DNA of 64,000 nt from Chloroflexota bacterium (GCA_964291655.2 OZ219802.1:288001-352000); one strand, 5' to 3'; counted from the first letter of the stretch, positions 3,790-20,428 are shown. The notes: a model not told the origin generated them from the sequence alone. Program-made: numbers and translations.

Positions 3790-5196
3790 ATGTCCGGCGT
3801 CGACGTCAACGACATCCACTCACAACTCAATCCCACCACCGTTGATCGGGTCGTACCAGTTGACTCGTTGCAAGCAATCCAGTCTGCCATCGCCACTGCG
3901 CAGAGTGAAGGGAAGTCGCTCTCCATTGCCGGTGGGCGGCATGCGATGGGAGCGCAACAGTTCGGCAGCGACACAATTCTCATTGATACGGTGCCGCTGA
4001 ATCGGGTGCTGGACTTCGACGCCGATGCAGGATTAATCACAGTAGAAGCGGGCATCTACTGGCCGGAGCTCATCGCAGCCATTCGCCAAGCAGCGCCGGC
4101 GCATCCGACGCAATGGGCTATCGCTCAGAAGCAGACCGGGGGAGACCGGATGAGCATGGGCGGTGCGCTGGCAGCTAACGTGCACGGCCGTGGTCTCCGC
4201 ATGCGACCGATAATCGCTGACGTTGAATCGTTCGTTCTGGTTGATGCCACCGGGAATGCCTTGAATTGCAGCCGCTCAGAAAACAGTGAACTCTTTCGAC
4301 TGGTAGTTGGAGGATACGGGCTTTTCGGCGTGGTCTATAGCGTAACGCTGCGGCTTGTGCCGCGACAGAAGCTCCGGCGCGCCGTCACTGTAATCGATAT
4401 TGATGAACTCATGCCGGCATTTGCGCAACGGATCGAGGAAGGTTTCCTCTACGGCGACTTCCAATACTCAATTGACGAATCGTCTGAAGGCTATCTGACG
4501 AAGGGTGTGTTTTCCTGCTACCGTCCGGTCGCGCCGGATACGCCAATTCCGGCGGAGCAGCGGGAGCTTTCCGTTGACGATTGGCGGCGCTTGATTCTCT
4601 TTGCCCACGTGAATAAGCCGCAGGCATTTGAGCAGTACGTTGCGCACTACCTCGCGACCAACGGCCAGATATATTGGTCGGACCTGCATCAGCTCGGCTA
4701 CTACGAGGAAAACTACCACCGCATGCTCGACCAATACGTCGGCGCTGCGGCGCCGGCAACGGAAGTAATTACCGAAGTCTATGTGCCGCGCCAATCCCTG
4801 GCGGCTTTTATGCGTGACGTTCGCGAGGATTTCCGGCAACACAAGACTGAAGTCGTCTATGGCACCATCCGTCTTGTGGAACGTGATGAGGAGAGCTTTC
4901 TGGCCTGGGCGCGAGAGAGCTTTGCCTGCGTCATCTTCAATCTTCATTTGTCCCATACACCGGAAAGTCAGGCAAGCGCCGCGGCAGCGTTCCGCCGCCT
5001 GATTGACCGGGCAATCCAGTACGACGGCAGCTACTACCTGACATACCACAAGCACGCCACCCGCGCGCAGGTGGAGGAGTGCTATCCACAGTTACCGGAG
5101 TTTCTCCAACTGAAGCGGCGCTACGATCCGGGCGAGCGATTCCAAAGCGACTGGTATCGCCACTACGCCGCGATGTTTGCTGACTCGATGGGCTAA
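3790..5196 (+). CDS. FAD-linked oxidase (PCMH/VAO-type, ALO/DprE1-like)
   Basis: GGRHAMG, GGALAANVHG, GGYGLFG, C-terminal KRRYDP..FQS. AAGGAG RBS upstream. Confidence 0.8.
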   Translation: MSGVDVNDIHSQLNPTTVDRVVPVDSLQAIQSAIATAQSEGKSLSIAGGRHAMGAQQFGSDTILIDTVPLNRVLDFDADAGLITVEAGIYWPELIAAIRQAAPAHPTQWAIAQKQTGGDRMSMGGALAANVHGRGLRMRPIIADVESFVLVDATGNALNCSRSENSELFRLVVGGYGLFGVVYSVTLRLVPRQKLRRAVTVIDIDELMPAFAQRIEEGFLYGDFQYSIDESSEGYLTKGVFSCYRPVAPDTPIPAEQRELSVDDWRRLILFAHVNKPQAFEQYVAHYLATNGQIYWSDLHQLGYYEENYHRMLDQYVGAAAPATEVITEVYVPRQSLAAFMRDVREDFRQHKTEVVYGTIRLVERDEESFLAWARESFACVIFNLHLSHTPESQASAAAAFRRLIDRAIQYDGSYYLTYHKHATRAQVEECYPQLPEFLQLKRRYDPGERFQSDWYRHYAAMFADSMG

Positions 5197-5492
5197 GTAC
5201 TGTCACCATTCACCAGTGGTTTAGGGTCGGAGGCGGCAGCCGTGTCCGTCGACAGTTGTATGCTAAGACGCTCCAAGCGTAATGTTGTCCGAAGACATGC
5301 ACTACGTGACGCGTTGTCACGTAGTCAACGTTAAGTTAGGGTGTGGCAATTCTTACGTCTGCACGAGCGCTGCGTCTAACACTGTGAATGTTTACGGTGC
5401 TGATGTCCCATTTGGCGTAGGGTCCAAGATACGTCCGGCTATGCGAACTAACGCCCAGCGAGGAGTAGTGCTCCATCAAGATCAATGAACCG

Positions 5493-6152
5493 ATGACAGT
5501 CTTGACCGACTTGTTGCTTGCCATTTGCAATGCCAAGTGGGGTATCGCTCTGCTGCGGCAAGGAATCTCGCAGCGCCAGTTCTCCCAGATCACATGGGGC
5601 ATAGGATTCCTGGCCGCAGCAGTTGCGGCAGTGCTTGGCGGCACGTCGCATGCCGTGGGGGACCAGTCGCCTGCGTTGCGGCGCAAGCTGTGGAAAGGGA
5701 CGACCCTGGCCACCGGGTTCACGAGCGCAGGCATGTTTGCGAGCACGGTGGTAGCCTCCGCGTCGCAGCCCCTCAAGGGGAGACTGCTCTTGGGCACGCT
5801 ACTGAAGCTGTTGGCATACTGCGGTTGGATGGCATCCCGCGGCAAGTTTCTCTACGTAATCATCGACTACGGATCCGCCATGGCGGGTGTCGCGGCGTTT
5901 CATGTGCCTTACGTTTTCCGTAGAGGCGCCGGAGACTCACGGTATTTGCTGAGCGGTGTCTTCATTTCGCTGCTCGCCGCATTCGTTCAGATACGCAAGA
6001 TCAAGCTTCACCGCCACTTCAATCACAATGACTTGTATCACGTCATCCAGATCGGCGCGTGCTATCTCTTCTACAGGGGCGGGCGGCTTCTGCAGGATCG
6101 CCGAGATGGGGAGGTGGACGAGGGGGGCACCAAGACAATCGGCGTGCAGTAG
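5493..6152 (+). CDS. Multi-pass membrane protein (DUF6962-like)
   Basis: Several hydrophobic segments; GGxxH in TM2 and C-terminal FNHNDLYHVIQ. Confidence 0.6.
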   Translation: MTVLTDLLLAICNAKWGIALLRQGISQRQFSQITWGIGFLAAAVAAVLGGTSHAVGDQSPALRRKLWKGTTLATGFTSAGMFASTVVASASQPLKGRLLLGTLLKLLAYCGWMASRGKFLYVIIDYGSAMAGVAAFHVPYVFRRGAGDSRYLLSGVFISLLAAFVQIRKIKLHRHFNHNDLYHVIQIGACYLFYRGGRLLQDRRDGEVDEGGTKTIGVQ

Positions 6153-6263: not shown

Positions 6264-7541
6264 ATGTCGCGTAGCAACCGAGAACGTGTTTCCCTTCCGT
6301 ACCTAGCCCGGATCAGTGTCTTCTGGCTGGGACTCTCAACTGTTTGGGCGGGTCTGAATGTTGTCTACCTACCTGACCGCGTTGAAGCACTGGTGGGCAC
6401 GGCGCACAAGGGCACCTACCTGGGCGTCCTAGTTTCCGTCGGCCTCATGGTTGCCATTGTCGTCCAGCCAGTTATGGGCGCGGTGAGCGACCGCACGACT
6501 TCGCGATGGGGCCGCCGCAAGCCGTACATGCTCTTGGGCTCGCTCTTGAGCGCTCTCTTTCTCTTGCTGATGGCTGCGGTCAGCACCTATGCACTGCTTT
6601 TCGCGGTGGTGATCCTGCTGCAGGTCTCAGCCAATAGTGCACATGGGCCGTATCAAGGCATCATCCCCGATCTGATTCCGCGGAACCAGCGGGGCCGCGC
6701 ATCGGGCTTCTTTGGCTTAGCCAACAATCTTGGCGTCCTGCTGGGTGCGCTCGTGGCCGGGCAATTCCTTGACCGGGGCCAACCGGGCAACTATCTGTTG
6801 GTTGCTGCAGGAGTGCTCGCATTCGTAGCAATTGTCTCGGCGCTGACCATTCAAGAAGACCCGTTGGAAGCAAAACCGGAGTTTGCGGGTATAGCACATG
6901 AATTTCGCACGCGCCTTGCGGAGTTGCGTTCGAGGCCGGGGTTCACTTGGATCCTGCTCTCCCGTTTGTTCTTTTTCATGGGACTGCTGGCTGCAGACCA
7001 GATTCTGCTCTTCTTTGTGCGCGAACGCCTTGGCATGAGCGAGAATGCCGGCCTCTCTGTGACCATGGCGCTTGGGGTGCTCATCGTAGTGGCGGGACTG
7101 GTCACAGTACCGGCAGGCTGGATTTCAGATCGCATAGACCGGCGCAGCCTGGTTTTCGCCGCCTGCAGTGTAGGGTTGGTTGCATCCTTGATTCTGCTCT
7201 TTACGACAAATTTCGCAACCCTTCTCGTTGGATTTGCCGTGCTCGGTGGGGCTGTTGGAATGTTCACTGCCGCGGACTGGGCATTGGCGATTGACCTCAT
7301 CCCCGATCCCAGAGCGCCCGGCCTGTACATGGGCCTCACCAACTTGGCGACTGCCGGCGGGGACGCACTCGGGAGCCTCAGCGCGGGGGTCGTGCTGGAC
7401 ACCTTCAACGGCATACAACCGCTGCTGGGCTACACCGCCGTCTTCATCATGATGGCGGGATTCTTCGCACTGAGCGCGGGAATTATGCTGAAGGTACCGA
7501 ATGTCTCCGTAGAGGAGCGAGATGCAGAGACGGACGCGTGA
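6264..7541 (+). CDS. MFS transporter (SLC45/sucrose-like)
   Basis: About 12 TM segments; GAVSDRT..WGRRKPY and GWISDRIDRR loop motifs. Confidence 0.85.
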   Translation: MSRSNRERVSLPYLARISVFWLGLSTVWAGLNVVYLPDRVEALVGTAHKGTYLGVLVSVGLMVAIVVQPVMGAVSDRTTSRWGRRKPYMLLGSLLSALFLLLMAAVSTYALLFAVVILLQVSANSAHGPYQGIIPDLIPRNQRGRASGFFGLANNLGVLLGALVAGQFLDRGQPGNYLLVAAGVLAFVAIVSALTIQEDPLEAKPEFAGIAHEFRTRLAELRSRPGFTWILLSRLFFFMGLLAADQILLFFVRERLGMSENAGLSVTMALGVLIVVAGLVTVPAGWISDRIDRRSLVFAACSVGLVASLILLFTTNFATLLVGFAVLGGAVGMFTAADWALAIDLIPDPRAPGLYMGLTNLATAGGDALGSLSAGVVLDTFNGIQPLLGYTAVFIMMAGFFALSAGIMLKVPNVSVEERDAETDA

Positions 7542-7716
7542 GACTAGCGGGGATAGCCCTGCTCAGATAGAATACCGCGATCGCAAACTGGATTTGACCA
7601 GTCGTTTTCGTGGCACACAATTGCGATCAAGGCTGGGAGAGTCCAGGAAGCCAAGGCAATGGGCAGCGCAAACAGCTCGAACTCTAATAGTGCCGGCTTA
7701 GAGACGTGACCCTAAA

Positions 7717-9072
7717 CTATGCCAGCACTCCGCCCTTTTGCGCCACGAGCATCTCTTGGAGAGTGCGACGGTCGACGTGCTCGTTCGGCTCTGTGCCGTC
7801 CATGGGACACACGCCTGCCGGGCACACTTTTTCTATAATGTGAGCATCGTACTCTTGGCGGAAGTTACGCACGGTGCTCACCACCGGCCAAGGGGCAAAC
7901 TGGCCGAGTCCGCAGAACGATGCGCCCATCATATCGGTGGAAGCATGTTCAATGAGATCAATGGTATCGGGCGCAGCCACGCCGTGGCGGACACGCTCGA
8001 CCAACATGCGGAGGACCCGGGTACCGTCGCGGCAAGGGAAGCAGAAGCCGCAGGACTCTTCCTCAAAAAACGTTGCATCTCGAATTGCCGCGTCGACAAC
8101 GCAGGAGTGGTCGTCCATAACGATGACGCCCGCCGTACCGAGGATAGTTCCGGCCGCCTGCACCGGTTTGAAGTCAAGGACAAGATCGATCATGTCGGCA
8201 GGTAGAATTGCGCTGGATGCACCGCCGGGCTTCCAGGCCTTGAGCTCGCGCCCCTGCCAAACACCGCCGGCGTGCTCATAGATCAGTTCCCGCGCGGTGG
8301 TTCCCATCGGCAGTTCGTAAACCCCCGGGCGCTCAACGTGGCCGGAAACGCAGTAGATATTTAAACCGGACCCCTCGTTAACTCCCAGGTTACTCCACCT
8401 CTCACCGCCATTGAGGACAATATCGGAGAGATTGGAGAGAGTCTCCACATTATTAATGAGCGTGGGTTTGCCGAATAGACCTTCATTGGCAGGGAAGGGC
8501 GGTCGTGCGCGTGGGTAGCCTCTCTTCCCTTCAAGGGAGTTCATAATGGCGGTTTCTTCGCCGACGATGTACGCTCCCGCGCCACGCCGTAAGTACAATT
8601 CCACGGAGAAGTCGGTGCCGAGTATGTTCTTGCCGATGAGGCCGCGCTCGTAGGCCTGTTCTATGGCGTGCTTGACTCGTTCATATGCTAAGAAGTATTC
8701 ACCCCGGATATAAATGAAGATGATGGAACATCCGGTAGCGTAGGCTGCCAGCAAACAGCCCTCCACCAAGAGATGGGGGTCTTCCTCGCCAATGACACGG
8801 TTGGAAAAAGTACCGGGTTCACTTTCATCGAAATTGCACAGGACGTACTTGGGCTCACCCCGAGCTCCCACCAGGAAATTCCACTTCATTGCCGTGGGAA
8901 ATCCGGCCCCGCCACGACCACCCATGTTTGCGGCGCGCACCTCATCGTGCACGGCTGAAGGGGTCATCTCAGTCAGTGCTTTGCGCAGAGCGGCATAGCC
9001 ATCGTGCGCCATGTAAGACTCGATGTCCTGAGAATTCTCATTGTGTATTCGCCGCAGGCAGACCTGCTCCAT
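7717..9072 (-). CDS. nuoF: NuoF/HoxF-like FMN/NAD(H)-binding diaphorase subunit
   Basis: GRGGAGFP, CNFDESEPGT, GAGAYIVGEETA, NNVET, SCGFCFPCRDG...FCGLG [4Fe-4S] ligands. Confidence 0.85.
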   Translation of the reverse strand: MEQVCLRRIHNENSQDIESYMAHDGYAALRKALTEMTPSAVHDEVRAANMGGRGGAGFPTAMKWNFLVGARGEPKYVLCNFDESEPGTFSNRVIGEEDPHLLVEGCLLAAYATGCSIIFIYIRGEYFLAYERVKHAIEQAYERGLIGKNILGTDFSVELYLRRGAGAYIVGEETAIMNSLEGKRGYPRARPPFPANEGLFGKPTLINNVETLSNLSDIVLNGGERWSNLGVNEGSGLNIYCVSGHVERPGVYELPMGTTARELIYEHAGGVWQGRELKAWKPGGASSAILPADMIDLVLDFKPVQAAGTILGTAGVIVMDDHSCVVDAAIRDATFFEEESCGFCFPCRDGTRVLRMLVERVRHGVAAPDTIDLIEHASTDMMGASFCGLGQFAPWPVVSTVRNFRQEYDAHIIEKVCPAGVCPMDGTEPNEHVDRRTLQEMLVAQKGGVLA

Positions 9073-9111
9073 GCTGTTCGCTCCTCGCGGCCGTCGGGCT
9101 ACATCTGCGCA

Positions 9112-9606
9112 CTAACCACTTTCACTGCTGGCTGCAACTTTAGCCTGAACCTTTTCGAGAGCTTCTGATCCAGTCACCTGCCCCACTGCAACCTCGTTGA
9201 TCAATAGCGCCGGCGCCTGCTCACAAAGTCCCAGGCACATAACCTCTTCCACTTCAAATGCGTCTGGCTGCGCTGCGGCTGCCTCTTCCAACGTATGCAG
9301 CACCTCCTGCGCGCCGCGCAGGTGACACGAGAGATTCACGCACACGCGCGCGATAACGGGCGGCTTCGGCTCAAAGAAGAACATTGTGTAGAATGTCGCG
9401 ACGCCAAATAGCTGCGCCTTTGTCTGCCCCAGGGCCTCCGCCACCATGCCCACGGCTGTGGGTTCCAGATAACCGAATTGCCGTTGCACAGCGTGAAGCA
9501 TATCGAGCGTCGAGCCCGGCTCTTGCTTGCACTCCTCAATCTCGCGCGCTAATGCGGCGTATTTAGCGGCATCAACGCTTTCGACTTCTCTCGGTGGCGT
9601 GGCCAA
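9112..9606 (-). CDS. nuoE: NuoE/HoxE-like [2Fe-2S] subunit
   Basis: GVATFYTMF, CVNLSC...CLGLC ligands. GGAGG RBS upstream of TTG. Confidence 0.85.
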   Translation of the reverse strand: MATPPREVESVDAAKYAALAREIEECKQEPGSTLDMLHAVQRQFGYLEPTAVGMVAEALGQTKAQLFGVATFYTMFFFEPKPPVIARVCVNLSCHLRGAQEVLHTLEEAAAAQPDAFEVEEVMCLGLCEQAPALLINEVAVGQVTGSEALEKVQAKVAASSESG

Positions 9607-9639
9607 TGGCTGTCCTCCGCTTTGTTCACGTGGTGGCGG

Positions 9640-10677
9640 CTATGTCTCCGGCTTATCGCGTTTGGTAAAGATATCCATATCACTACTGTGACCCGGAGCG
9701 AGCCGAGCATCGGGGTTAATATACCGCACTGCTTGATTCACTGCCATAGCCGCCTCGGACGCACCGCACGCAATCAGATTGATCTTCCCCTCGTAAGCGG
9801 CAATATCGCCTGCAGCATAGACACCGGGCCGGCTCGTAACCATCGTCGCGGGATCTACCTTGATGCCCTTCCTGCCTTCAAGGTCAACCCCCCACTTTCG
9901 TATGACAGTCGTGTCCATCAGGAATCCAATGCAAATCAGGATTATGTCCACTTCAAGATCGAAAGTCTCTTTCGAAGTGAGATTCGTGATGGTGACTCCC
10001 GTGAGCTTGCCGTCAGTTAAGTGCAACTCACTGGCTTCATGCCGGGGGAAATGCACGTCCACCTCCGAGTAAATGAGTTGGCGAACTGTAGCCTCGTGCG
10101 CCTGCCAGACCGGCAGGCGGTGAATGAGCGTCGCCATCTTTGCGACTTTCTCAAGTTCAAGCGCCCAGTCGAGTGCCGAGTCTCCCCCACCAATGATCAG
10201 CACACGCTTGTCGCGGAACGTTTCCAGGTTCTTCACTGTATAGAAGACCTGCTTGTCTTCCAGGGGCTCGATGCCGGGAATCTTCAATTTGCGCGGCGCC
10301 AGCGAGCCATTGCCGTTGGCAATGAGTACGGTCTTGCTCTTGAATTCCTCGCCGCTTTGCGAATGAAGCACGTAGACGCCGTCGCGCTCTTCAAGTTCCG
10401 TTATTTTCTGTGAAAGAATTATGGGATATTGCCACTGGTCTGCTTGCTCATGCAAAGCCGCAACCAGATCCTTGGCGAGAATCGCCGGGAAGCCAGCCAT
10501 ATCGTAGACGTTCTTCACCGCGTATAGGGCTGAAAGGGCGCCGCCTATTTCATCCATTGCTTCCACAAGCTGTGTATCGAGATGGCGCACTCCGGCGTAG
10601 AAAAGCCCAAACAACCCCGTAGGGCCACCTCCAATAATCGTAAGGTCCTTTACGCCATCTCCCCCGTTCTCCACCAT
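9640..10677 (-). CDS. TrxB-like ferredoxin-NAD(P) reductase (YumC/FNR type 2 family)
   Basis: GGGPTGLF, GGGDSALDWA, YAAGDI, no redox CxxC, C-terminal PGHSS tail typical of the YumC family. Confidence 0.8.
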   Translation of the reverse strand: MVENGGDGVKDLTIIGGGPTGLFGLFYAGVRHLDTQLVEAMDEIGGALSALYAVKNVYDMAGFPAILAKDLVAALHEQADQWQYPIILSQKITELEERDGVYVLHSQSGEEFKSKTVLIANGNGSLAPRKLKIPGIEPLEDKQVFYTVKNLETFRDKRVLIIGGGDSALDWALELEKVAKMATLIHRLPVWQAHEATVRQLIYSEVDVHFPRHEASELHLTDGKLTGVTITNLTSKETFDLEVDIILICIGFLMDTTVIRKWGVDLEGRKGIKVDPATMVTSRPGVYAAGDIAAYEGKINLIACGASEAAMAVNQAVRYINPDARLAPGHSSDMDIFTKRDKPET

Positions 10678-10704
10678 TTCACAGTGCTCCTTCCAGCAGT
10701 GTCT

Positions 10705-10818
10705 CTAACCCTCGGTAATTGCTCGCTCCATCATTCGTGCATCCAGTATCACGTCGCTTCCGCTCCCCACAGCTATAGGATACAAGAATGGCTCATGCGT
10801 TAGAATTATCGTGCTCAT
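10705..10818 (-). CDS. Possible 37-aa small protein overlapping the glcF stop
   Basis: ATG preceded by GGAG; fills the glcF-FNR gap. No homology recognised. Confidence 0.2.
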   Translation of the reverse strand: MSTIILTHEPFLYPIAVGSGSDVILDARMMERAITEG

Positions 10819-12154
10819 TGCTCTCCGCTGCCTGATAGGCTTTTTCAAGCAGTTCCATTGTGTGAATTGATCGCGTTGCTTCTCCGCTTGCAGCCAGGGC
10901 ACTGTCCATTTGCAGCATACAACCCGGATTGCCAACAACGACGAGTTCAGCGTCCGTTGCCGCGATATTCTTGACTTTCGGCGCTACAATGCGCTGCGCC
11001 ATGTCGGCCTGCACAACGTTATATACGCCCGCGCTGCCGCAACAGTGATCGGAGTTCTTCATCTCTACAAATTCAAGTCCCGGAATTGCTTGCAGCAGGG
11101 CGCGCGGCTGTGCTCGCACCCGCTGTCCGTGCGCCAGGTGGCAAGCATCTTGATACGTTACGCGCTTGTTTACCGGCCCAAACGACGTGTCTACCTCAAT
11201 ATCGGCCAAGAATTCGCTAACGTCTTTCACCTTCTCTGAAAAGTCGCGGGCGCGGAGGGCATATTTGGGATCAAGCTCAAGCAGAATGTCGTACTCCTTG
11301 AGCGCAGTACCGCAGCCGGCCGCGTTGCTGATGATGACGTCCAAGTCATAGGATTCAAAGGCGTCAATGTTCTGCCGGGCCAGGTCTTTGGCTGTCTCAC
11401 GGTCCCCGGCATGGACACCTAAAGCGCCGCAGCAGCGTTGGCTCTTGGGTATCACCACCTCGCACCCATTGCGTGAAAGGACGCTCACGGTTGCCCGATT
11501 CGTTTCACCGAAAAAGTATGGCATGATGCAACCGGTCACAAACCCCACCCGGCGTTTCGTCTCACCACGAGCTGGGACTACCTCCACGTCGGGCGCGGCA
11601 TAGAATTCGTCAGACAACTTAGGCAGCATCGTTTCGGCATGACCGAACTGCCCAAAGAGCTTCAAGACACCGCTGCCTCGCACTAACTTCTGCAACCCGG
11701 AGGATTGGTAGAAACGGAGGATGTTGGCAACCAGACTCAGTCTGCGGGGAAATGGAAATGTCTGTTTGAACACGAGCCAGCGCAGGAAGCGTGGGACCAT
11801 CCCACCGGGCTTCGCTTGAATCGCCTCGCCGCGCGCTGCCTCGATGATCTTGCCATACTGTACTCCCGATGGACAGGCAGTCTCGCAGGCCCGGCAATCC
11901 AAACAAAGGAATATATGTTGCAGAAACGTCTCATTGATTGGAATGCGCTCTTCTTTGGCCGCTTTGACGAGATAGATGCGGCCCCGCGGACTCTCCATCT
12001 CGAGGCCCGTTTCCCGGTACGTGGGACACGCATTGAGACAAAGTCCGCAGTGCACGCATTGGGCAAGGTCCTCATCCGTAAGGCCTTCAAAGCGTACGCG
12101 TTCATTGTCAGAATCTGGAATAACGAGCCCTGGCTTGCCGACATCGGTATTCAC
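10793..12154 (-). CDS. glcF: Glycolate/2-hydroxy-acid dehydrogenase Fe-S subunit
   Basis: CVHCGLCLNACP and CLDCRACETACP ferredoxin motifs plus two CCG domains (RCCGALG, HCCGSAG). Confidence 0.88.
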   Translation of the reverse strand: MNTDVGKPGLVIPDSDNERVRFEGLTDEDLAQCVHCGLCLNACPTYRETGLEMESPRGRIYLVKAAKEERIPINETFLQHIFLCLDCRACETACPSGVQYGKIIEAARGEAIQAKPGGMVPRFLRWLVFKQTFPFPRRLSLVANILRFYQSSGLQKLVRGSGVLKLFGQFGHAETMLPKLSDEFYAAPDVEVVPARGETKRRVGFVTGCIMPYFFGETNRATVSVLSRNGCEVVIPKSQRCCGALGVHAGDRETAKDLARQNIDAFESYDLDVIISNAAGCGTALKEYDILLELDPKYALRARDFSEKVKDVSEFLADIEVDTSFGPVNKRVTYQDACHLAHGQRVRAQPRALLQAIPGLEFVEMKNSDHCCGSAGVYNVVQADMAQRIVAPKVKNIAATDAELVVVGNPGCMLQMDSALAASGEATRSIHTMELLEKAYQAAESNEHDNSNA

Positions 12155-12190
12155 GTTGGACTTGCTCGCCTTATCTAGAGTGAAATGGTG

Positions 12191-13531
12191 CTAAATCTTC
12201 GCTACGAATCGGCCTGGATTTAGAATGTTGCGTGGATCGAAGGTCTGCTTGAGGCTGCGCATGACGCTTAGTCCCTGAGGACTCGGTCCCCAGACGTCAA
12301 AGGCGGCCTTGAGCGCCGGCGAGCCTCGTTGCAAGATCAAACTACCCCCATGTTCCTGGCTCACTGCTCGGGCATGCTGCAAGAAGCTGAGAAGCTTGGC
12401 CGATGTAGCCGAATGGACAGAGGGGTCTTGCTCTTGCCCGTCCGCCGACCGAATTCCACACTTTAGTGAGCCGCTGAGAGGATCGGCTAGAACTCCCACT
12501 GCTCCCTCAACGGGCGCTGCCGAGCGCAAGAGGTCTGCATAGACGTGCCGCACTTCTGTTGGTACGGCGCTCGCCTTTAGCAAGACATCCGTTGGGCCAC
12601 CAACCGACCCCACGTCCACGCATGCTTGCCACAGGGACACCCCGTCCTCTTCGCAAACTACCTCTGCGTCAATCCCGCCCCCTGCAGTTCCTGCCGCCGA
12701 GGCGTCGCGGACCTGCCGTGCCACAGCTCCTTGTGCGCCCATGAAGCGGACAAGAAGCACATGGCCGCCACGGACTGCGCCAAACAAACACTGTTGAGCG
12801 GCTGCATTACCGACCACGGCCGCCGCCGGATGGTACGCGCGTATGGCGGATGCTGCCGCAAAGGCCGCGCCGAATTCCTTAAATGCGAGAATGAGGGTTT
12901 GATCAGCCTTTGGCAAAGGATACACCTTGAATGTGGCTGTGGCGATAACCCCCAACGTACCGAGGGCGCCGACCTGCAGCTTGTGAAGACCGAACCCGGC
13001 CACGTTCTTTACCACCTCGCCGCCGCTCTTGACAAGGGTGCCGTCACCTTGGACGAATTGCATGCCCATAACCAGGTCCTTGGCAGTACCGAATGCAAAC
13101 CGGAGCGGCCCGTGCGCGTTCACCGCCACGGCTCCGCCAATTGTGGCTCTCTCTGGGCGGGGCACCTCAAGCGGCAGAGTCTGGCCATGTTCGCGCAGAG
13201 TCTCTTGCAAGACGGCCACGGTCACGCCCGCCTCTGCCGTCACAATGAGGTCGGCAGGTTCGTATCCCGATATCGCATTAAGTCCCGCGGTGGAGAGTGC
13301 CACGCAGGTATCAGTTGGGGGCGCGCCAAGATCGAGCATGGTGCCGCCGCCTATGGGGGTGGTTGAAGCCCCGGCGGCGTTTAGTTCCCCAACGACCTCA
13401 GCCAATTCTGCAATAGCACGAGGCGCCACACACAACGACGGCTGCTTGCCGTCTATAGTAGGACTCTCGGTAGTGACCGCATCATGCGAGACGATCTGAG
13501 CGAGCTGGGTGTGGAGTGTCTCAGTCAGCAA
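12191..13531 (-). CDS. glcE: Glycolate dehydrogenase FAD-binding subunit
   Basis: YEPADL.VTAEAG, GGEVVKNVAGF, GALGTLG, FDPRNILNPGRF; lies between glcD and glcF. Confidence 0.85.
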   Translation of the reverse strand: MLTETLHTQLAQIVSHDAVTTESPTIDGKQPSLCVAPRAIAELAEVVGELNAAGASTTPIGGGTMLDLGAPPTDTCVALSTAGLNAISGYEPADLIVTAEAGVTVAVLQETLREHGQTLPLEVPRPERATIGGAVAVNAHGPLRFAFGTAKDLVMGMQFVQGDGTLVKSGGEVVKNVAGFGLHKLQVGALGTLGVIATATFKVYPLPKADQTLILAFKEFGAAFAAASAIRAYHPAAAVVGNAAAQQCLFGAVRGGHVLLVRFMGAQGAVARQVRDASAAGTAGGGIDAEVVCEEDGVSLWQACVDVGSVGGPTDVLLKASAVPTEVRHVYADLLRSAAPVEGAVGVLADPLSGSLKCGIRSADGQEQDPSVHSATSAKLLSFLQHARAVSQEHGGSLILQRGSPALKAAFDVWGPSPQGLSVMRSLKQTFDPRNILNPGRFVAKI

Positions 13532-13545
13532 CGCGTATCTGCATC

Positions 13546-14997
13546 CTACTTCCAGACCGCAGTAGTAGTAGAGTGGACCGGGGACTTGCCGATGTGGATT
13601 TTCGCTGCATGTGGACCTTCACCGGTGGGGAATATTTTTGTGGGGTTGAACAACCAGTAAGGATCGAAAGCGCGCTTGAGCTTGCGCATAGACTCCAAGT
13701 CTTCTTCGCTATAGAGCCAGTCCATGTACTCTTGCTTTTCGGTGCCGATGCCGTGTTCCCCCGAGAGTGAGCCGCCGGCGTCAATGCACGCGCGAATAAT
13801 CTCCTCACCCGCTGCAATAACCCGTTGCACCTGGTCGCTATCGCGCACGTCAAAGAGCAGATTGGGATGCAGGTTGCCGTCACCGGCATGAAATACATTG
13901 GCGATAATGATGTCGTAGCGCGCGGCCACGTCTTCAACAAAGCGCATAATCTCCGGTAGTTTTGTGCGGGGTACGACACAATCCTGGATATAGTAGTTTG
14001 GCGCCAGCCGACCCAATGCGCCGATGGCCCCCTTGCGTCCCTTCCAAACCGCCTCCCGCTCAGCGGCAGTCTGCGCCACTCGGATTTCACGGGCACCTGC
14101 CTCACGGCAGAGGTTTAGAATTGCTTCCCGCTGTTCGTCGAGTTCCTCCTGCATGCCGTCGATTTCGATGATAAGCACACCACCGGCATCGGAGGGGTAG
14201 CCGACATGATGCGCTTCTTCAATTGCTTGGGTGACGACCTGGTCCATAATCTCCAGTGCGGCAGGAATAATGCCATTGCCAATGATGGATGAAACTGCCT
14301 GGCACGAGTCTGGGACACTCTCGAAAATCGCAAGGTAGGTCTCAACTGCTTCCGGAATTGGCAGCAGCTTGACAAGGATCTTAGTCACCACACCCATGGT
14401 GCCTTCGGAGCCGATAATTGCGCATAGGAGGTCATAGCCCGGTGCGTCCGGCGCCTTGCCGCCAAGCCATGCCACTTCACCGCCTGGAAAGACCACCTCC
14501 AGGCCCATAACATGATTAATCGTGCAGCCATAGCGCAGGCAATGGGCACCGCCGGAGTTTTCGGCGACATTGCCCCCGAGTGTGCATGCATATTGACTAG
14601 ACGGGTCCGGAGCATAATACAGCCCCAAGTGCTTAACTTCGTCGGAGAGTTCGAGGTTTACCACCCCAGGTTCCACGAGCGCGGTGCGATTCTCTTCGTC
14701 GATCTCAAGAATGTCCCGCATGCGGCTGACAGAAAGCAGTATGCCGTTTTCTTCCGGCACGGCGCCGCCAGAGAGGCCCGTTCCGGCGCCCTTCGGTACC
14801 ACCGGTACCTTCAATTCATTAGCGACAACCAGTATCTCACTGACTTCAGCCGTGGTGCGTGGAAAAGCTACGGCGGCGGGTAGTTGGGCGTCAATTGATG
14901 CGTCGCGCTCGAAGACTATGAGGTCTTCCGGAAGATGAACGACGTGCTCCGGTCCAACAATGGCCTGCAAGCGCTCAACGAGTTCACGTGTGTCCAT
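13546..14997 (-). CDS. glcD: Glycolate/D-2-hydroxy-acid dehydrogenase FAD subunit
   Basis: GAGTGLSGG, PDPSSQ..CTLGGNVAENSGG, FHAGDGNLHP, GEHGIG. Confidence 0.9.
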   Translation of the reverse strand: MDTRELVERLQAIVGPEHVVHLPEDLIVFERDASIDAQLPAAVAFPRTTAEVSEILVVANELKVPVVPKGAGTGLSGGAVPEENGILLSVSRMRDILEIDEENRTALVEPGVVNLELSDEVKHLGLYYAPDPSSQYACTLGGNVAENSGGAHCLRYGCTINHVMGLEVVFPGGEVAWLGGKAPDAPGYDLLCAIIGSEGTMGVVTKILVKLLPIPEAVETYLAIFESVPDSCQAVSSIIGNGIIPAALEIMDQVVTQAIEEAHHVGYPSDAGGVLIIEIDGMQEELDEQREAILNLCREAGAREIRVAQTAAEREAVWKGRKGAIGALGRLAPNYYIQDCVVPRTKLPEIMRFVEDVAARYDIIIANVFHAGDGNLHPNLLFDVRDSDQVQRVIAAGEEIIRACIDAGGSLSGEHGIGTEKQEYMDWLYSEEDLESMRKLKRAFDPYWLFNPTKIFPTGEGPHAAKIHIGKSPVHSTTTAVWK

Positions 14998-15135
14998 GGC
15001 GTACTACCTAAACTCGATTCGTGCCTATCCGCCTCCGACCCACCAATCACTGTGATGATACCATAGCCCAAATACTGCGAACAAAAACCTGGGGGCTGCC
15101 TGCCTGAGCTTTCTGCCGCATCCAATGAGGCAGGG

Positions 15136-15149
15136 GATTCCCGGGAATC
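15136..15149. promoter_or_regulatory. Perfect 14-bp palindrome GATTCCCGGGAATC, candidate operator in the divergent glcD/kinase region
   Basis: Seen directly. A minus-strand TTGACG at 15174-15169 would place a weak -10 over it. Confidence 0.3.
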
Positions 15150-15200
15150 TCGTTTCGGCAATTACTACCGTCAAACCTAAGAAGAGGACGTCCTGCAACG

Positions 15201-16259
15201 GTGTCAAGAACTCTCGAATTCGACGCAATGCAACTGCACATGACCCAAATCGAGCCTCCCATCGGGCCGGTTCGCTTGTTGCGTCCCGTTACCGGAGGTG
15301 GCGCTCAAGGAGCGAGAGTTTGGCAGGGTGTCTTGGCTTCAGGCACGCACGTTGCAATCAAGCAACATGCACACCCCGGAGCGGGAGATGTTGAGTACGG
15401 TGTGCTGGAAATGCTCTACCGGCTTGGCGCCCCGGTTGCGCGCCCACTACTTTGGCAACCGGAGGCGCGCACACTTATTACGGAGTGGACAGGGTCTCGC
15501 ACACTTGCCGCGGCGATCCAGGAAACCGGCCAACACCGGGAATCGCAGTCTCACGAACTGCGCCGTTTGACCCATGGCTTAGTTCAGAGTTGCACCGCTC
15601 TTGAGACTGCTTTTCAGGGGCTAGCCGCGCGGATGCCGTTTGGCTCAACAGGTGAGCAAGAACGCCGCCGCACGGAGGTCCGGGCGAGGTGCCGTCACGC
15701 GCCTGAGACGTACGAGCGACTTGCGGACTTCTGCGGTCTCGCGATACCGCAGGGCTGGACATCAGCCCTGCGTAAGGCATGGACAGCAGTAGCAGAATCT
15801 ATGTGCAGCGGCAAAACGACGTTCGGCGGTCGCGACTGCACGCCGCGCAACGTGCTTGTTGACGGTTCCGAGATACGGTTTGTGGACTTTGCAGTCGTCG
15901 GCCTCGATTGGCCGGAAGCGCGGCTGGCGCAGTATGCCGCCGCCGTGGCGGCCGGCGCGACGACACAGCCGTTTCAGACCCTCTTGACCCATGGCGAACC
16001 GCAGTGGTACGTTGATAGTGGGTGCATTGAAATTCCACAGTTGGACATGCATCACTTGTTAGTGTGGAGCGAGGTATTGCGGTTGCTTCTCGACGGGAAG
16101 CTGGGAGTGCCAAGTTCCCCGAGCAACTTGCTGGGTCGAAAACTAGACCAGGCAGTGAAGTTGGCGCTCACTCCTTTGGCCCCCACGACACCCGGAGAGT
16201 TGGTACGCTCACTCGTCGCCACAGTCTTTGTACACGGGTCGATCTCATTGAAGCAATGA
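15201..16259 (+). CDS. APH/choline-kinase-like phosphotransferase
   Basis: GGGAQG loop, VAIK, catalytic loop GRDCTPRN, VDF; start codon uncertain. Confidence 0.65.
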   Translation: MSRTLEFDAMQLHMTQIEPPIGPVRLLRPVTGGGAQGARVWQGVLASGTHVAIKQHAHPGAGDVEYGVLEMLYRLGAPVARPLLWQPEARTLITEWTGSRTLAAAIQETGQHRESQSHELRRLTHGLVQSCTALETAFQGLAARMPFGSTGEQERRRTEVRARCRHAPETYERLADFCGLAIPQGWTSALRKAWTAVAESMCSGKTTFGGRDCTPRNVLVDGSEIRFVDFAVVGLDWPEARLAQYAAAVAAGATTQPFQTLLTHGEPQWYVDSGCIEIPQLDMHHLLVWSEVLRLLLDGKLGVPSSPSNLLGRKLDQAVKLALTPLAPTTPGELVRSLVATVFVHGSISLKQ

Positions 16260-20349: not shown

Positions 20350-20428
20350 GGAACAATCCTATCCAAGCCATTTGTGCAGTGTTTCACAATGTTACTCGAC
20401 TGAATTCTACCACAAGAGCCACGTCTGA

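Follow-up and report, generated by a model that had tools for sequence, protein, structure and literature searches.

A glcDEF-FNR-nuoEF gene row in one Chloroflexota genus is very probably an ordinary neighbourhood of three redox units, with nuoEF relocated from a complex I operon

Among described redox systems, those closest to the gene row treated here are the GlcDEF glycolate oxidase of Escherichia coli, ferredoxin-NADP+ reductases (FNR) of the thioredoxin-reductase type, the NuoE and NuoF subunits of complex I and the HydB and HoxF subunits of bifurcating hydrogenases. A 12-subunit type of complex I, with NuoG and without NuoE and NuoF, is described in a section of PMC3144371. In the portion of 10.1101/197269 that concerns them, glcDEF and nuoEF are handled separately, and no published description of a glcDEF-FNR-nuoEF row was found in the literature. 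Such a row is present in a 64,000-nt stretch of DNA from a Chloroflexota bacterium (GCA_964291655.2, OZ219802.1:288001-352000; hereafter the window). Six open reading frames (ORFs) follow each other head to tail on the minus strand and were assigned by ORF calls and by Pfam and NCBIfam models as glcD-like, glcE-like, glcF-like, FNR, nuoE and nuoF. A reading made from this sequence alone had proposed a stand-alone NuoEF diaphorase and a new GlcDEF-NuoEF redox system. Our analysis leads to a simpler explanation, which we consider very probable: three ordinary redox units, namely a quinone-linked 2-hydroxy-acid dehydrogenase, an FNR and the relocated nuoEF genes of complex I, stand side by side in an ordinary lineage-specific neighbourhood. 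The row would then be missing from print because it is a local arrangement and not an overlooked system.

The evidence that carries this explanation comes from the remaining genome. The window corresponds to C2:288001-352000 of its own assembly, which comprises 3.47 Mb in two contigs and is 97.55% complete. A single complex I operon is located at C2:167.5-180 kb, 125 kb from the row, with the gene order rex-nuoA-B-C-D-G-H-I-J-K-L, followed by two matches to NuoL paralogues which seem to occupy the places of nuoM and nuoN. The genes nuoA, B, C, D, H, I and L are single-copy in the genome and all lie in this operon. Between nuoD (10915-12120 of the operon locus L008) and nuoH there is, after a gap of 61 nt, a nuoG gene of 853 aa (L008 12182-14743), so that the operon contains nuoG and exactly nuoE and nuoF are missing. 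This NuoG matches TIGR01973 over positions 1-606 with 446.2 bits against a cut-off of 470.05. Matches of the NuoG model in the genome are found at C2:170193-172229, on C1 and, weakly, at C2:2286-3524. None lies inside the window; the earlier statement that nuoG is absent is thus true of the window but not of the genome. The NuoF model matches two places only, the gene in the window and a fused NuoE-NuoF of 606 aa on C1 between pieces of a formate dehydrogenase. Because the only other NuoF is this fused form, the operon lacks exactly what the window supplies, and the formate dehydrogenase locus has its own partner, since the fused protein sits between its pieces.

These results bear directly on the two options put forward by the sequence-only reading. 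The first, a stand-alone diaphorase or a GlcDEF-NuoEF system, finds no support, as a NuoG partner exists in an operon that lacks exactly E and F; co-purification of NuoEF with a NuoG encoded elsewhere had been named there as evidence that would speak against such a system, and at the level of gene content such a partner is present. The second, in which the row provides input modules for a headless complex I, holds insofar as the operon is devoid of E and F, but the enzyme is not headless, because nuoG is there. Likewise, the suggestion that the nuo operon might lack E, F and G proved right for the first two genes and wrong for the third. A headless complex I with 11 subunits, from which NuoE, NuoF and NuoG are all absent, was considered and is ruled out by the 853-aa NuoG.

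Conservation of the row was followed with a NuoF scan of species-representative genomes, which yielded 28 loci, 15 from the genus of the window and 13 more distant ones. All 15 genus loci, which stem from metagenome-assembled genomes and whose NuoF proteins are 89-95% identical, show the order glcD-glcE-glcF-FNR-nuoE-nuoF followed by the convergent MFS gene, with almost unchanged spacing; at one locus glcD is truncated by the end of the contig. Synteny across genomes, which the sequence-only reading had named as a check, therefore exists, but it is confined to this genus. The flanks are collinear in 15 of 15 loci as far as each of them reaches, over at least about 16 kb in all, and include an ALO-like FAD oxidase, a DUF6962 protein and the MFS transporter on one side and an APH-like gene, a DUF2342 gene and a HAD hydrolase on the other. 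The 15 loci represent one genus, the sole genus of its family in the sample. Since the whole neighbourhood is collinear and all loci come from a single genus, conservation of the row carries little weight. The junction between nuoD and nuoG is contiguous in five of five other genomes of the genus.

Outside the genus, 19 class-level loci were fetched around NuoF, eight from family f6, four from f4 and seven from f5, f2 and f3. In f6 and f4, the families nearest by NuoF identity, a lone nuoE-nuoF pair was found at 12 of 12 loci; up to a distance of 10 kb, it has no nuo, glc or FNR gene as neighbour. Ten ORFs that flank the pair at four of these loci were scanned, and nucleases of the PD-(D/E)XK type, a DNA methylase, a Mur ligase and a proteasome-like protein are among their products. 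In the five f6 and f4 genomes that were checked, the nuoG match always follows the nuoD match at a distance of at most 50 nt. In f5, f2 and f3, nuoF is part of a full operon, with nuoD on one side and nuoG on the other (7/7 loci), and the same holds for six of the 13 more distant loci. As f4 and f6 share the split among unrelated genes, the separation of nuoEF goes back further than the genus and does not depend on glcDEF or FNR. The lone pair thus predates, in two neighbouring families, an adjacency that is seen in one collinear genus, which further undermines the idea of a dedicated GlcDEF-NuoEF system.

The sequence relationships fit this order of events. Identity to the NuoF of the window amounts to 52-56% in f6, 50-53% in f4, 48-50% in f5 and f2 and 40-47% in f3; for NuoD it is 55-57% in f6 and f4 and 47-52% in f5, f2 and f3, and for NuoG 37-42% and 30-34%, respectively. 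The roughly parallel ranks of the three subunits fit vertical descent of NuoEF along with the other complex I subunits. A quick maximum-likelihood tree was built from 37 NuoF rows; it places the genus with the lone-pair clade of f4 and f6 (SH-aLRT 85), beside the in-operon clade. Homologues of glcF occur in 60 of 61 genomes of the class, and in the non-genus genomes compared (G043, G021, G019, G020) they are located tens of kb to about 0.66 Mb from nuoF. FNR is found in 18 of the 61 class genomes, comprising all 17 of the genus (that of the window included) and one other, and in 28 of 401 genomes of the phylum. None of 18 FNR loci outside the genus has glcF, nuoE or nuoF within 1.5 kb, and FNR was not found in f4 and f6 (0/21 genomes at E<=1e-30). 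As the row is limited to the genus, and glcF and FNR lie apart from nuoEF elsewhere, the six-gene row is a single juxtaposition in the ancestor of one genus.

In detail, we propose that a rearrangement in the ancestor of this Chloroflexota genus joined three redox units. By homology, GlcD would oxidise a 2-hydroxy acid (glycolate or D-lactate) and pass the electrons via the iron-sulfur and CCG domains of GlcF to the quinone pool, and FNR would exchange electrons between NADP(H) and ferredoxin or flavodoxin. NuoE and NuoF would oxidise NADH and dock on the NuoG encoded 125 kb away, which would complete a 14-subunit complex I whose gene complement is found in the genome. There is no need for GlcDEF or FNR to feed complex I, and nothing requires the products of the six-gene row to interact.

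The proteins of the NADH-input module have the features expected of such subunits. NuoE has cysteines spaced C-x4-C and C-x3-C, and its best NCBIfam model is NF005722 (95.9 bits, cut-off 141). NuoF contains the stretches GRGGAGFPT, GAGAYIVGEETA, CGFCFPC and FCGLG, which we take to be the glycine-rich FMN/NADH motifs and the four cysteines of the 4Fe-4S site. Its Pfam domain set consists of Complex1_51K, SLBB and NADH_4Fe-4S, with no further cofactor domains. It scores above the cut-off of NF010120 (412.9 bits against 389) and below those of TIGR01959 (511.1 against 558.65) and NF008436 (379 against 749). Compared with solved NuoF chains of 434 aa such as 6hl2, it reaches about 372 bits.

Several points weigh against this explanation. 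The docking on NuoG is deduced from gene content and homology. TIGR01959 and every NuoE equivalog model remain under their cut-offs. The best solved relatives of NuoF are of the hydrogenase type (7t2r_B, 447.5 bits; 7q4v_B, 443.6 bits; HoxF 8oh5_B, 420.4 bits), and Nqo1 of Thermus complex I (2fug_1) ranks lower with 399.9 bits. Furthermore, a C-x-A-G-x-C pair at the C-terminus of NuoF aligns with the start of an extra ferredoxin domain in two longer rows, L033 and L034, and the fork that links the lone-pair clade, the in-operon clade and these two long rows is not resolved in the NuoF tree. Finally, short gaps, a perfectly conserved ribosome-binding site and the lack of a recognisable terminator between glcF and FNR fit one transcript, which would be expected of a functional link as well.

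We treat the hydrogenase likeness of NuoF as the probable outcome of family-wide conservation together with a two-cysteine vestige, and not as a sign of membership. L033 (1038 aa) and L034 (595 aa), whose NuoF gene has no nuoA-D neighbours, are probably hydrogenase-type, judging from length and context. The C-x-A-G-x-C terminus (window 7717-7800) occurs in the genus, in most f6 rows and in one f4 row; in-operon rows keep at most its first cysteine. About 104 of the best 120 database relatives of NuoF are short three-domain proteins, many of them named NuoF by their source, and about 16 are long forms. Pfam detects neither an N-terminal 2Fe-2S nor a C-terminal 2x[4Fe-4S] ferredoxin domain in NuoF. 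No hydrogenase gene was found among the six row genes and five neighbouring ORFs scanned, and the window contains no formate dehydrogenase gene. Membership in the Hyd/Hox group (bifurcating HydB/HoxF) was therefore rejected: extra domains and partner genes are absent, and most near database relatives are short and NuoF-type.

Among the other explanations, selected co-expression without physical coupling fares best, and we regard it as possible but doubtful. Here, one transcript of six genes would make the levels of FNR and of the NADH-input module increase in step with the oxidation of 2-hydroxy acids. Co-transcription of FNR, nuoE and nuoF, perhaps of all six genes, is plausible because of the tight spacing on one strand. 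In an alignment of 16 genomes, the glcF-FNR spacer is poorly conserved and fast-evolving except for GGAAGGAG, the ribosome-binding site just ahead of the FNR start, and its length varies from 79 to 137 nt. No conserved terminator or promoter motif was seen in it across these genomes, and consensus scans of 7400-15400, which are weak for this phylum, found no promoter-like or terminator-like site there. Over the whole scanned region, two promoter-like sites (3.2 expected) and six terminator-like sites (7.8 expected) were obtained, which is uninformative. The spacer is the longest gap in the row, and an unrecognised internal promoter in it would fit equally well; besides, stoichiometric complex I subunits would be odd members of a substrate-specific operon. 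The row also has no match to the Rex operator, whereas a rex gene precedes the nuo operon. With up to three mismatches, the Rex operator consensus gave two matches in the window (1.91 expected), and the search of the window and L008 provided no evidence of a shared Rex control of the row and the nuo operon.

Two Rex-operator matches outside the row are recorded here as such. One with a single mismatch lies at window positions 20372-20389 between genes for an aquaporin-like protein (MIP) and a LeuA-like synthase. The other, with three mismatches (0.60 expected), is found at L008 8628-8645, 30 nt ahead of the rex-like gene in front of nuoA. Either of them may be due to chance.

Four genomes of f6 and f4 (G043, G021, G023 and G059; loci L086-L089) carry an orphan gene for an FdsA-type formate dehydrogenase of 931-940 aa with a NuoG-like N-terminus. 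Five flanking ORFs from three of these four loci were scanned, and none had a Pfam match to a NuoE or NuoF family. In each of the four genomes there is a single NuoF match (E<=1e-40), and E and F are missing from the nuo operon. A single nuoEF pair in f6 and f4 might serve both NuoG and FdsA-type partners.

This leads to an explanation which we judge unlikely, namely that NuoEF acts in this lineage as an independent NADH dehydrogenase module open to sharing, and that its genes lie apart from the nuo operon because it serves more than one NuoG-like partner or also works in soluble form, for example with FNR. It would agree with the separation of nuoEF from the operon in three families, with the orphan FdsA-type genes in genomes that have one NuoF each, and with the position of FNR in the genus, 33 nt ahead of nuoE. 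However, gene positions of orphans are weak evidence, the formate dehydrogenase locus of the window's own genome has its own fused NuoE-NuoF and does not need sharing, and FNR was not found in f4 and f6, which have the same split. Marginally less probable still is the broader form of the idea, in which the lineage f1, f4 and f6 would use NuoEF as a separately encoded, exchangeable NADH-input module for NuoG and for other acceptors (the orphan FdsA-type protein in f4 and f6, FNR or GlcF in the genus) and would thereby gain an NADH-linked route to ferredoxin or NADP or to the reduction of 2-oxo acids.

That GlcDEF, FNR and NuoEF assemble into a single complex, soluble or associated with the membrane, which couples the conversion of 2-hydroxy and 2-oxo acids to NAD(H), with FNR as ferredoxin link and possibly with confurcation, is highly improbable: six same-strand genes with gaps of 14-115 nt at 15 of 15 genus loci, a glcF-FNR spacer without a terminator-like site and the higher score of NuoF to bifurcating hydrogenase subunits than to Nqo1 would suit it, but the adjacency belongs to one genus with collinearity throughout the 16 kb, nuoEF stands without glcDEF and FNR at all 12 f4 and f6 loci, glcF is nearly universal in the class without a link to nuoEF, NuoF (451 aa, three Pfam domains) is devoid of extra HydB-type iron-sulfur domains, the six proteins contain no ETF or other bifurcation-type domain, FNR, NuoE and NuoF bear no additional domain for docking (FNR aligns with its solved relatives over residues 8-334 of 345, and NuoF with its own over residues 14-423 of 451), and the nuoG of the operon that lacks E and F would have no partner left.

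The features of the row are compiled in Table 1. From the ORF ends, intergenic gaps of 14, 36, 115, 33 and 39 nt were computed, and 175 nt separate the row from the MFS gene. The composition of the row, its gaps and the convergent MFS gene at its end, as first described from the sequence, were borne out by ORF coordinates, Pfam and NCBIfam.

Table 1. Features of the glcDEF-FNR-nuoEF row and its boundary (positions in the window)
Feature	Position	Strand	Characteristics
glcD-like, FAD-linked 2-hydroxy-acid dehydrogenase catalytic subunit	13546-14997	-	483 aa; PF01565 + PF02913; best model glcD
glcE-like, second FAD-binding subunit	12191-13531	-	446 aa; PF01565 (FAD_binding_4) + partial PF02913; best model glcE
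glcF-like, iron-sulfur subunit	10793-12154	-	453 aa; PF13183 4Fe-4S dicluster + PF02754, two CCG stretches
glcF-FNR spacer	10678-10792	-	115 nt
Thioredoxin-reductase-type ferredoxin-NADP+ reductase (YumC type)	9640-10677	-	345 aa; Pyr_redox_2
nuoE, 2Fe-2S subunit of the NADH-input module	9112-9606	-	164 aa, TTG start; PF01257 (2Fe-2S_thioredx), 115.8 bits
nuoF, FMN/NADH-binding subunit with 4Fe-4S site	7717-9072	-	451 aa; PF01512, PF10531/PF22461, PF10589
MFS transporter gene, convergent, bounds the row	6264-7541	+	425 aa; PF07690, 138.3 bits

Beside the MFS gene, positions 3790-6152 of the window encode a second FAD-linked oxidase (FAD_binding_4 and ALO-like, 468 aa) and a DUF6962 protein. 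The order ALO-like oxidase-DUF6962-MFS is kept at 15 of 15 genus loci, and the relative L022 has the MFS-DUF6962 pair twice.

The formate dehydrogenase locus on C1 (50.2-55.1 kb; L009 6213-11067) has an unusual order. It starts with the catalytic molybdopterin part, which begins just past the expected Fe4S4 domain and has an in-frame TGA whose context is of the selenocysteine type; a tRNA-Sec gene is present at C1:574849-574947. The fused NuoE-NuoF of 606 aa comes second, with one TAA inside the match, where most relatives in the genus have open frames of 627-628 aa. Last is an iron-sulfur protein of 336 aa which resembles the N-terminus of NuoG and ends with a Molybdop_Fe4S4 domain. The alpha subunit of this formate dehydrogenase looks split or permuted.

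For genome interpretation, the locus is a caution. In a window of 64 kb, nuoEF away from the other nuo genes mimics a stand-alone diaphorase, just as an operon without E and F mimics a truncated complex I, and only the whole genome reveals that the two halves of complex I fit. This is of relevance for the metabolic reconstruction of uncultured Chloroflexota, in which complex I is often scored by operon content. A passage of PMC4453560 reports that the statistics failed in Chloroflexi, since genomes scored without complex I still held 13 of 14 subunit genes. The split into an operon nuoABCD-G and onward and a separate nuoEF, common to three families, is a small evolutionary marker. The use of NuoEF as a shareable module in this lineage is a modest residual possibility and, if true, would bear on the recruitment of N-modules to different enzymes. 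The genes of the row all belong to known families as ordinary members, and the analysis gives no support to the new redox system that had been proposed.

A comparison with known systems sets each unit in its place. The glcDEF-like genes share number, order and domain content with those of the E. coli glycolate oxidase, whose models are the best match for each subunit. They differ in that all three subunits score under the equivalog cut-offs (GlcD: TIGR00387, 508.4 against 567.9 bits, and NF008408, 483.6 against 897; GlcE: NF008439, 164.8 against 284; GlcF: NF008434, 284.6 against 333) and in the length of GlcE, 446 aa against a model of 358 positions. A domain search of the genome at the completeness given above revealed no malate synthase domain, and the glyoxylate carboligase model reaches 333 bits at its best genome match against a cut-off of 711, with other glyoxylate routes not searched. 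Since no malate synthase domain was found, a 2-hydroxy acid other than glycolate may be the substrate, for example D-lactate, for which no special route downstream would be needed. Confurcating lactate dehydrogenases of the LctBCD type are defined by ETF alpha and beta genes alongside; the scan for the ETF family covered the six row proteins and four flanking proteins, with the remaining genome not searched, and gave no match, so that this type was rejected. As side observations, three f6 genomes (G051, G047, G057) have one in-frame TGA within the glcF match, for which selenocysteine, a frameshift or an error are possible, and a distant genome (locus L032, 17218-18318) encodes a GlcF-like CCG protein of 21% identity about 7 kb downstream of nuoF, with a second, partial nuoB-C-I-D set in between.

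The flavoprotein agrees with thioredoxin-reductase-type FNRs in a near full-length match and in the lack of a redox-active CxxC pair. Its best solved relatives are 6gas (266.6 bits) and 3lzw (259.3 bits) of the Bacillus YumC kind, Thermus 2zbw (258.5 bits) and Chlorobaculum 3ab1 (235.7 bits); FNR chains overall score 168-267 bits, and true thioredoxin reductases at most 96.4 bits. It differs in its placement between glcF and nuoE, which is seen in this genus only. In four genomes of the genus (G012, G014, G006, G009) one TAG was observed inside the FNR match, with open frames of 345-382 aa, probably because the alignment overruns the gene end.

The bifurcating HydB (7q4v, 7p5h), NiFe-HydB (7t2r) and HoxF (8oh5) are the top solved relatives of NuoF at 416-447 bits, and it has the C-x-A-G-x-C pair, at the junction to the C-terminal domain, in common with L033 and L034, which are probably of this type; it differs by the lack of extra iron-sulfur domains and by neighbours which are FNR, glcDEF and MFS genes. 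The 12-subunit complex I of Campylobacter and Helicobacter also has an operon with NuoG and without nuoE and nuoF. In contrast to the 11- and 12-subunit forms, an unfused nuoEF pair exists elsewhere in this genome, and the 61-nt gap between nuoD and nuoG leaves no substitute genes. From NuoE and NuoF (Nqo2 and Nqo1) of complex I, as in Thermus thermophilus (2fug) and in NuoF entries such as 6hl2, the pair differs in its position 125 kb from the operon and behind an FNR gene, in the C-terminal cysteine pair and 28-residue tail of NuoF and in the slightly higher score to hydrogenase-type subunits. It shares with them the three-domain NuoF, the single-domain NuoE and the cofactor motifs, in a genome that carries all remaining complex I genes, nuoG included.

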